From the sequence record PQ330092: a DNA stretch of 64,000 nucleotides. One strand, given 5' to 3'. Source of the DNA: Escherichia phage JP4. The notes beneath the pieces were generated by a model. It was not told the DNA's origin. It worked only from the letters and a program-made list of their open reading frames with translations, and made no database searches. Below, one piece after another: positions 6,074 to 6,590 of the stretch. Position numbers and translations under genes: made by a program. The first letter of the stretch is position 1. The number at the start of each line of letters is the position of its first letter.

Positions 6074-6300
6074 AAATGATTAATTTAACTTACCATGAAT
6101 ATCAAAAACGTTTAAATGCATCCAGAGATATAAGGATTCAAATATTCAATAACAAAAAATTGAAACCTGATACCAGAAGAATCAAAATCATAGAAGCCGT
6201 GTTGTGTAACTTCCTAGGGACTAACTATCAGGAAGGTAAGGTAGAAAACTATCTTATAGAACTCATGAATAGTATTGAAAATAAATGTAAGGGTAATTAA
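6070..6300 (+). CDS. family A paralog
   Basis: FLGTNYQEGKV; ATGA overlap. Confidence 0.75.
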   Translation: MKMINLTYHEYQKRLNASRDIRIQIFNNKKLKPDTRRIKIIEAVLCNFLGTNYQEGKVENYLIELMNSIENKCKGN

Positions 6301-6312
6301 CATGAAAATGAT
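6262..6312 (+). repeat. ~50-bp direct repeat, copy 1
   Basis: near-identical to 6539-6590; spans stop of one paralog and start of next. Confidence 0.7.
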
Positions 6313-6541
6313 TAAATTATCTCAAGCAAAATATAAAGAACGCCTGGTGAAAATTGCACCTGGACTTAATGAAATCCATCACGGAGAAGTCATTAAACAC
6401 GGAAATAAGATGATTATGAAACTTGAGTTAAAGGTGGGTGCATTCATAGGAACAAACTATCAGGAGTATTATGTAGATGAATACATAATCGCACTTAAGA
6501 GATATATTGGAAGAAAACTATATCTACAAACTAAAGAATAG
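6302..6541 (+). CDS. family A paralog
   Basis: FIGTNYQEYYV; start at ATG 6302 (MKMIKLS); track start 6275 is TTG inside upstream gene. Confidence 0.7.
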   Translation: MKMIKLSQAKYKERLVKIAPGLNEIHHGEVIKHGNKMIMKLELKVGAFIGTNYQEYYVDEYIIALKRYIGRKLYLQTKE

Positions 6542-6590
6542 TATTGAAAATAAATGTAAGGGTAATTAACATGCAAATGATCAATTTAAG
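6539..6590 (+). repeat. ~50-bp direct repeat, copy 2
   Basis: AGTATTGAAAATAAATGTAAGGGTAATTAACATG... repeated. Confidence 0.7.

Follow-up and report, generated by a model that had tools for sequence, protein, structure and literature searches.

Why should a row of small paralogous phage genes carry the same 38 nucleotides twice, 269 nt apart, once at the end of an intact gene and once mostly between two genes? The question arises in a 64,000-nt stretch of Escherichia phage JP4 (PQ330092), the whole of which was analysed and is called the window here. Its source is an Asteriusvirus jumbo coliphage of the PBECO4/121Q group; the window is ~98.5% identical to PBECO4 over the 4-kb stretch compared and is homologous to 121Q genes 325-336. 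The repeat lies in the middle of a tandem gene array, in which the genes around it are named N (5646-5864), O (5855-6073), P, Q', Q'' and R (6831-7046). The features that the argument needs are the following:

3117-9474, plus strand: array of 29 small head-to-tail genes, tandem paralogs of ~70 aa (phrog_4148).
6070-6300, plus strand: gene P, 76 aa; the relic described below corresponds to its last 19 codons (6243-6300), which are intact here.
6302-6541, plus strand: gene Q', 79 aa, with codons 1-73 native and codons 74-79 (YLQTKE) and the stop coming from the P-type relic.
6571-6834, plus strand: gene Q'', 87 aa, an older paralog of Q'.
6267-6304, plus strand: first copy of the 38-mer, made up of the final 10 sense codons and stop of P, the motif AAGGG (6289-6293) and the ATG of Q' (6302-6304).
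6536-6573, plus strand: second copy of the 38-mer, made up of GAA TAG of Q' (6536-6541), a 29-nt spacer with AAGGG at 6558-6562, and the ATG of Q''.

Examining the array proteins, we found that 28 of the 29 genes are recognised members of one family carrying the motif LGTNYQE. An HMM derived from the array returned 28 contiguous ORFs and four weaker ones elsewhere in the window. Comparison of the array proteins with PHROGs gave E values of 1e-18 to 1e-27, and a Pfam search of the same proteins gave no match. P, Q' and Q'' each match the phrog_4148 profile (1.7e-24, 9.3e-27 and 7.3e-26, respectively), spanning positions 1-72 or 1-73 of its 74, and thus all three belong to the family. In the alignment of the 29 paralogs T51, Q54 and L65 are invariant, and a G-T-x-x-Q turn is shared. 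An AlphaFold2 model of a family protein (pLDDT 96) places helices at residues 8-27, 33-47 and 54-78, so the array proteins are predicted to adopt a three-helix bundle fold; the top structure matches in BFVD were members of the same family. A divergent in-line ORF of 83 aa within the array (5199-5450) was missed by the family HMM and has MTGTDKKAIAKSI in place of LGTNYQE; it may be a strongly diverged family member or an unrelated insert.

The exact 38-mer GAATAGTATTGAAAATAAATGTAAGGGTAATTAACATG is found at 6267-6304 and 6536-6573 and nowhere else in the window, and allowing up to 3 mismatches revealed no further copy in the 64 kb. None of 100 shuffles produced a match. Around the 38-mer extends a longer direct repeat of 226 nt (6240-6465 versus 6509-6734; 76% identity, 269-nt period), of which it is the best-conserved stretch; outside the 38-mer the identity is 71%. 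Following identity along the window at the 269-nt offset showed 100% at 6267-6304, about 57-90% (30-nt windows) over the rest of the repeat and a background level of about 27-43% at 6465-6524. Given a background identity of 71%, a run of 38 matches has a probability of ~1.6e-4, indicating that the core is younger than its surroundings. An earlier reading made from the sequence only had placed a ~50-bp repeated segment at 6262-6312 and 6539-6590. The repeat itself was again present on self-comparison of the window; its coordinates had to be revised, as the string starts at 6271 and 6540.

The two copies differ in what they encode. In copy 1 the assignment made previously, the C-terminus of the gene at 6070 (...NSIENKCKGN and stop) plus the start of the next gene, is what we read from the sequence, the tail of P being ENYLIELMNSIENKCKGN followed by its stop codon. 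Copy 2 had been described as noncoding, which is accurate for 6542-6570 but not for 6536-6541, the end of Q', nor for 6571-6573, the ATG of Q''. An AAGGG Shine-Dalgarno motif stands 8 nt 5' of both ATGs (6302 and 6571), and GenBank records of PBECO4, BF17, G17, SP27 and others start these genes at the equivalents of the same two codons. The ORF starts at 6275 and 6544 are TTG artefacts, as suspected: the same TTG is present in both repeat copies, where a longest-ORF rule picks it up. The 29-nt spacer at 6542-6570 is the sole untranslated gap of more than 1 nt among the 28 gene boundaries of the array; the remaining boundaries overlap or abut (-44 to +1 nt).

Overlaps of 23-44 nt join neighbouring array genes at 4728-5214, 7047-7735, 7732-8800 and 9009-9474, and there the gene tails run on out of frame. 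As an example, gene 7047-7301 ends ...KVNANEILNRR over the MQMKYL start of the gene at 7273, and its homologue in TH47 stops sooner, at ...KEKVNAK, which suggests that stop codons at array boundaries are often lost and gained. Another outcome of boundary instability is seen in a 154-aa protein from an ENA metagenome (P0001), a two-domain product of two adjoining array genes fused in frame, homologous to 7493-7735 plus 7732-7962 of the window.

Similarity of copy 2 to the tail of P reaches upstream of the 38-mer to 6512. Two further features were defined there:

6513-6569, plus strand: P-type C-terminal coding relic, 57 nt, out of frame, reading ENYIYKLKNSIENKCKGN and a stop in its own frame.
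6512-6520, plus strand: breakpoint microhomology AGAAAACTA, 9 nt, the same 9-mer as in the tail of P at 6243-6251.

The relic matches the P tail at 21/29 positions over 6513-6541 (72%) and is then identical to it through 6573, with 38/38 matches over 6536-6573. Its frame is +1 relative to Q', has no upstream start codon and contains no ORF of at least 25 aa in the ORF list. With the frame shifted and no start codon available, we conclude that the copy 2 segment is a relic of a P-type coding tail. Q' reads 29 nt of this relic up to its TAG, and the remainder forms the 29-nt spacer before Q''.

To place the breakpoint we used a three-way comparison of the Q' tail, the native tails of its nearest relative, Q'w (WPEC3 and metagenome contig L022), and the P tail. 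Q'w, found in WPEC3, fEgEco12 and CMSTMSU with an intact native tail two genes upstream of the Q' position, is 71% identical to Q' in protein and 82% in DNA, and the DNA identity spans exactly 219 nt (6302-6520). Past 6520 the two part: Q'w goes on into its native tail AGTAAACGTG... and Q' into P-tail-like sequence; the tail proper to Q'w (KL-SKRARNAND and stop) overlaps the start of the following gene. The 9-mer AGAAAACTA also ends the Q'-type genes of metagenome contigs L022 and L021, and WPEC3 has AGTAAACTA. At the join, codon 73 of Q' is followed by P-type codon 58 in a frame shifted by +1, ~14 codons out of register by the family alignment. An identical short sequence is thus present at the breakpoint in both parental sequences, and this 9-nt switch point has the appearance of a signature of an illegitimate join at microhomology. 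Both unrearranged parents can be identified, as native Q'w tails in WPEC3, fEgEco12, CMSTMSU and L022 and as intact P tails followed by Q'' or a Q''-type gene in UB, Ecwhy_1, 121Q, Turkey3 and TH47.

The relic frame stays open up to the TAA that P also uses, and we therefore considered a programmed frameshift from Q' into it. This candidate was rejected: no canonical slippery heptamer was seen on inspection of 6509-6521, and the end of Q' varies among relatives (YLQTKE, YLQTKELYCK or YQRTKKMYRK before the stop). In UE-S1 (locus L011, 1215-1600) the TAG of Q' is changed to TTG and the gene runs four codons longer, to ...YLQTKELYCK. Both junction copies of UE-S1 differ from those of the window as well, which shows that relic and spacer are under no strict sequence constraint.

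Together, these comparisons lead us to propose that the repeat is probably the scar of an illegitimate, microhomology-mediated recombination inside the tandem paralog array. A break near the end of Q' (codons 71-73, AGA AAA CTA) would have been joined to the same 9-mer in a P-type tail (codons 57-60). In the most economical version, the crossover would have occurred between two co-replicating genomes, a P-Q' parent and a parent in which P is directly followed by Q''; that both arrangements exist follows from L022 and from the phages lacking Q'. The product would read P, Q' codons 1-73, a 19-codon P-tail relic in the +1 frame, the P/Q spacer with its ribosome-binding site, and Q''. The relic would thereby supply Q' with six frame-shifted codons and a stop, while Q'' would retain the ribosome-binding site normally found after P. 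The sequence truly duplicated would be the P tail and the intergenic segment only. The order of these events and the identity of the parental genomes are what we infer from the junctions of present-day relatives. As a counterpoint, every P tail sampled shows about 8 mismatches to the relic in the 29 positions of its 5' part. Given these mismatches, the donor may have been an unsampled or lost P paralog; a Q'-P2-Q'' ancestor would then have undergone an internal deletion, with no crossover between genomes. Further rearrangements must have occurred, because contig L021 has O, Q' and relic without P, and Q'w of the WPEC3 type lies between N and O. The history of the junction therefore admits more than one reconstruction.

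The relatives show how variable this part of the array is. Among roughly 20 relatives inspected, we counted seven local gene orders for the ~1.2-kb stretch. The relic and the 269-nt spacing are present in all 11 Q'-carrying relatives with inspected junctions. The order N-O-P-Q'' is found in UB and Ecwhy_1, and the same order with a Q''-type gene in Turkey3 and TH47; 121Q has N-P-Q, a Q''-type gene coming right after P, and A4 has N-O-Q'', where P is missing and a Q''-type gene follows O. WPEC3 and fEgEco12 carry N-Q'w-O-P-Q''; CMSTMSU has the same Q'w gene and P/Q'' junction, the reading frames of O and P being disrupted in the record. Logan contig L022 has P-Q'w-Q'' with an intact Q'w tail and no relic, and ENA contig L021 has N-O-Q'-relic without P. 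Judging by these orders, the array has clearly been reshuffled repeatedly. An apparent +71-bp variant in BF17, E9.1 and slurp01, suggested by the lengths of BLAST places, proved to be an artefact of joined HSPs, as the ORF maps of BF17 and PBECO4 are colinear. The Q' protein is 100% conserved in 17 phage records and at least 96% identical in 19/35 records. Its dN/dS against orthologs is 0.3-0.5, by which Q' looks like a live gene.

The sequence-only reading had explained the repeat by unit duplication through unequal recombination. Part of this survives, since there is a recombination junction in a tandem paralog array and a coding tail survives in copy 2 as a non-functional leftover, but a clean homologous duplication of 269 bp does not. 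In its simple form, such a duplication would have copied a 269-bp unit (P tail, spacer and Q) by unequal crossing-over between sister genomes, after which the Q copies diverged. The two copies do lie head to tail with a strict and constant period of 269 nt, the 76% identity over 226 nt includes the first two thirds of both genes, and the 72% identity of the relic 5' part to the P tail resembles that between Q' and Q''. However, a simple duplication predicts even divergence along the unit and a junction in register. The final ~45 nt of the supposed unit (roughly 6465-6511) are dissimilar at the 269-nt offset, and the whole dissimilar stretch at 6465-6524, which should match like the rest of the unit, argues against it; the junction keeps neither register nor frame. 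Furthermore, Q' orthologs with the native, unrelated tail stand at other array positions and in the relic-less order P-Q'w-Q''. Q' is also much nearer to Q'w (dS 0.41) than to Q'' (dS 0.84, 48% aa identity), and a second process would be needed for the perfect 38-mer. We consider a simple duplication distinctly unlikely. By the same divergences Q' and Q'' are old paralogs, Q' being no recent copy of Q''.

The illegitimate join alone leaves one feature to be accounted for, the perfect identity of the 38-mer next to a relic 5' part of 72%. Identity in copy 2 begins abruptly at 6536, and the Q'-carrying phages fall into two copy-2 haplotypes that differ in the last 15 nt of copy 2. In haplotype A (the window, PBECO4, BF17, SP27, SD-1_S14 and, nearly, ELP-22) copy 2 equals copy 1. 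Haplotype E, TGTGAGGTTGATGAAC, is carried by G17, phAPEC6, SHEFM2K, slurp01 and CRJP21, and by UE-S1 with extra changes; it differs from copy 1 at four sites and has there the bases of the P/Q'' junction of Ecwhy_1 and WPEC3. A single additional change in ELP-22 apart, all Q'-carrying phages inspected share one relic 5' part. Neighbour-joining trees of the flanks do not sort the phages by haplotype: phAPEC6, for example, clusters with PBECO4 and BF17 in them and yet carries the other form. An abrupt boundary and alternative haplotypes matching a possible donor are what an exchange tract leaves. Given the second haplotype in relatives, the perfect 38-mer most likely arose by recombination or gene conversion at a later time. 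True P tails, either in the same genome (conversion from copy 1) or in co-infecting relatives, would still recombine with the relic's 3' part, and such exchange would explain the 100% identity of this part to copy 1, against 72% for the 5' part. Haplotype E is found in the more basal Q'-carriers (SHEFM2K, UE-S1, slurp01/CRJP21) in trees that are short and mosaic, which hints at a change by conversion from copy 1 to copy 2, the alternative being import from an Ecwhy-type phage. That conversion made the core perfect is likewise something we infer.

Strong purifying selection on a functional element, either a translation-initiation region or a promoter of the downstream gene, would be another way to keep 38 nt identical. 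Both copies have the AAGGG Shine-Dalgarno with its 8-nt spacing and a downstream start codon, and a weak sigma-70-like match (TTGAAA-17-TAACAT, 9/12 positions) is present. Against this, relatives accept other sequences at the site (TGTGAGGTTGATGAAC, and UE-S1, in which both copies differ), a ribosome-binding site needs only about 15 nt of the 38, and a promoter-like site here would start transcription within a gene. Searches for a promoter or terminator, a structured RNA or a repeated regulatory motif in the repeat were all null and each of these candidates was rejected: promoter-like sites are not enriched (34 found versus 38.6 expected from shuffles), no terminator lies at the repeat and terminator-like sites do not exceed the shuffled expectation, folding at the repeat shows no RNA structure (z = 0.19), an Rfam search of the whole window gave no match, and a tRNA search of the window gave none. 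Selection as the main cause is thus very improbable. The exact core sequence is not required, as the variants among relatives show, and purifying selection on the ribosome-binding region may still contribute to its conservation. That the repeat was falsely expanded or collapsed in assembly, a doubt raised earlier, is next to impossible: the two copies and their 269-nt spacing recur in all 11 inspected Q'-carrying assemblies, which come from phages of independent sources in several countries, the flanks of the two copies are distinct, and the exact repeat (38 nt) is shorter than a sequencing read.

On the reading as a recombination scar, the two direct repeats left by the join could themselves recombine and delete the 269-bp Q' unit. 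UB lacks Q', and its P/Q'' junction is, base for base, the left part of copy 1 followed by the right part of copy 2, the exact product of a 269-bp pop-out. In the trees of either flank (O+P and Q''), UB falls inside the clade of Q'-carriers. Most parsimoniously, UB would have lost the 269-bp unit through recombination between the direct repeats; alternatively, mosaic exchange may have preserved the ancestral state in UB.

Microhomology-mediated illegitimate recombination and duplication-deletion junctions occur in phage and bacterial genomes, and the present junction resembles them in its 9-nt shared breakpoint, out-of-register join, truncated gene fragment and repeats able to delete, as in UB. 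We see no essential difference from such junctions in general, the mechanism here being read from sequence. In this sense the scar is an everyday trace of the gain, loss and reordering of genes in such rows. Another point of comparison is the hyperplastic regions of T4-type phages, in which, as Arbiol and colleagues are said to have described in 2010, small ORFs are shuffled modularly by means of promoter-stem-loop (PeSL) cassettes. As in those regions, uncharacterised small early-type ORFs differ in order and number even among closely related phages, and conserved gene-boundary sequences are the likely crossover points. Unlike in those regions, no promoter or stem-loop is detectable at the array boundaries, and the conserved boundary is overlapping paralog coding sequence (...SKCK and stop over MQMINLSKDE...).

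A 63-nt repeat of this kind is shared by the N/O and O/P boundaries (5823-5885 and 6038-6100; 83% identity), with 6539-6601 as a further place. The repeat covers the overlap of stop and start (...VKSKCK over MQMINLSKDE...), and the motif AAATG.AAATGAT.AA.TTAA is found at three array boundaries. It is plausible that these boundary repeats serve as crossover points for cassette reshuffling among relatives.

The tandem gene arrays of the jumbo phages 121Q and G have been read as the outcome of tandem duplication (Hua et al. 2017, mBio, PMC5646251), a view restated for phAPEC6 (Wagemans et al. 2020, PMC7247149). The array studied here is the same, and its origin by tandem duplication was previously only postulated. 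The two papers describe the array and its probable duplication origin only, with no junction, relic or cassette reshuffling (PMC5646251, PMC7247149), and the present junction adds a concrete record of recombination within the array. In contrast to the duplication model of those papers, this junction appears illegitimate, is out of frame and is no clean unit duplication. Three processes seem to be visible here, namely illegitimate joins at microhomology, homologous exchange at conserved boundaries and pop-out deletions between repeats. No new mechanism or function is revealed; the value lies in a worked example of array turnover and in the correction of gene models (no TTG starts, a genuine 29-nt spacer and a frame-shifted tail of Q'). 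One could go further and regard the array as a fast birth-and-death family of small three-helix proteins, e.g. host-takeover or anti-defence factors as they may be, whose cassettes are swapped between co-infecting Asteriusvirus through the stop/start boundaries. Such a reading is speculative and rather unlikely; if true, the scar would be a snapshot of an organised diversification mechanism and no one-off accident.

Paralogy in the window extends beyond the array. Isolated, weaker members of the same family lie 1.3 kb to 15 kb downstream of it, at 10814-11223, 23821-24039 and 24017-24208. Further paralog families are interleaved over 18846-28831, one with seven ORFs of 147-164 aa between 19945 and 28831 and a second with four ORFs of about 118-125 aa between 18846 and 25719. 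Several two-member families are also present, at 9464-10178, 11930-13062 and 45712-46270.
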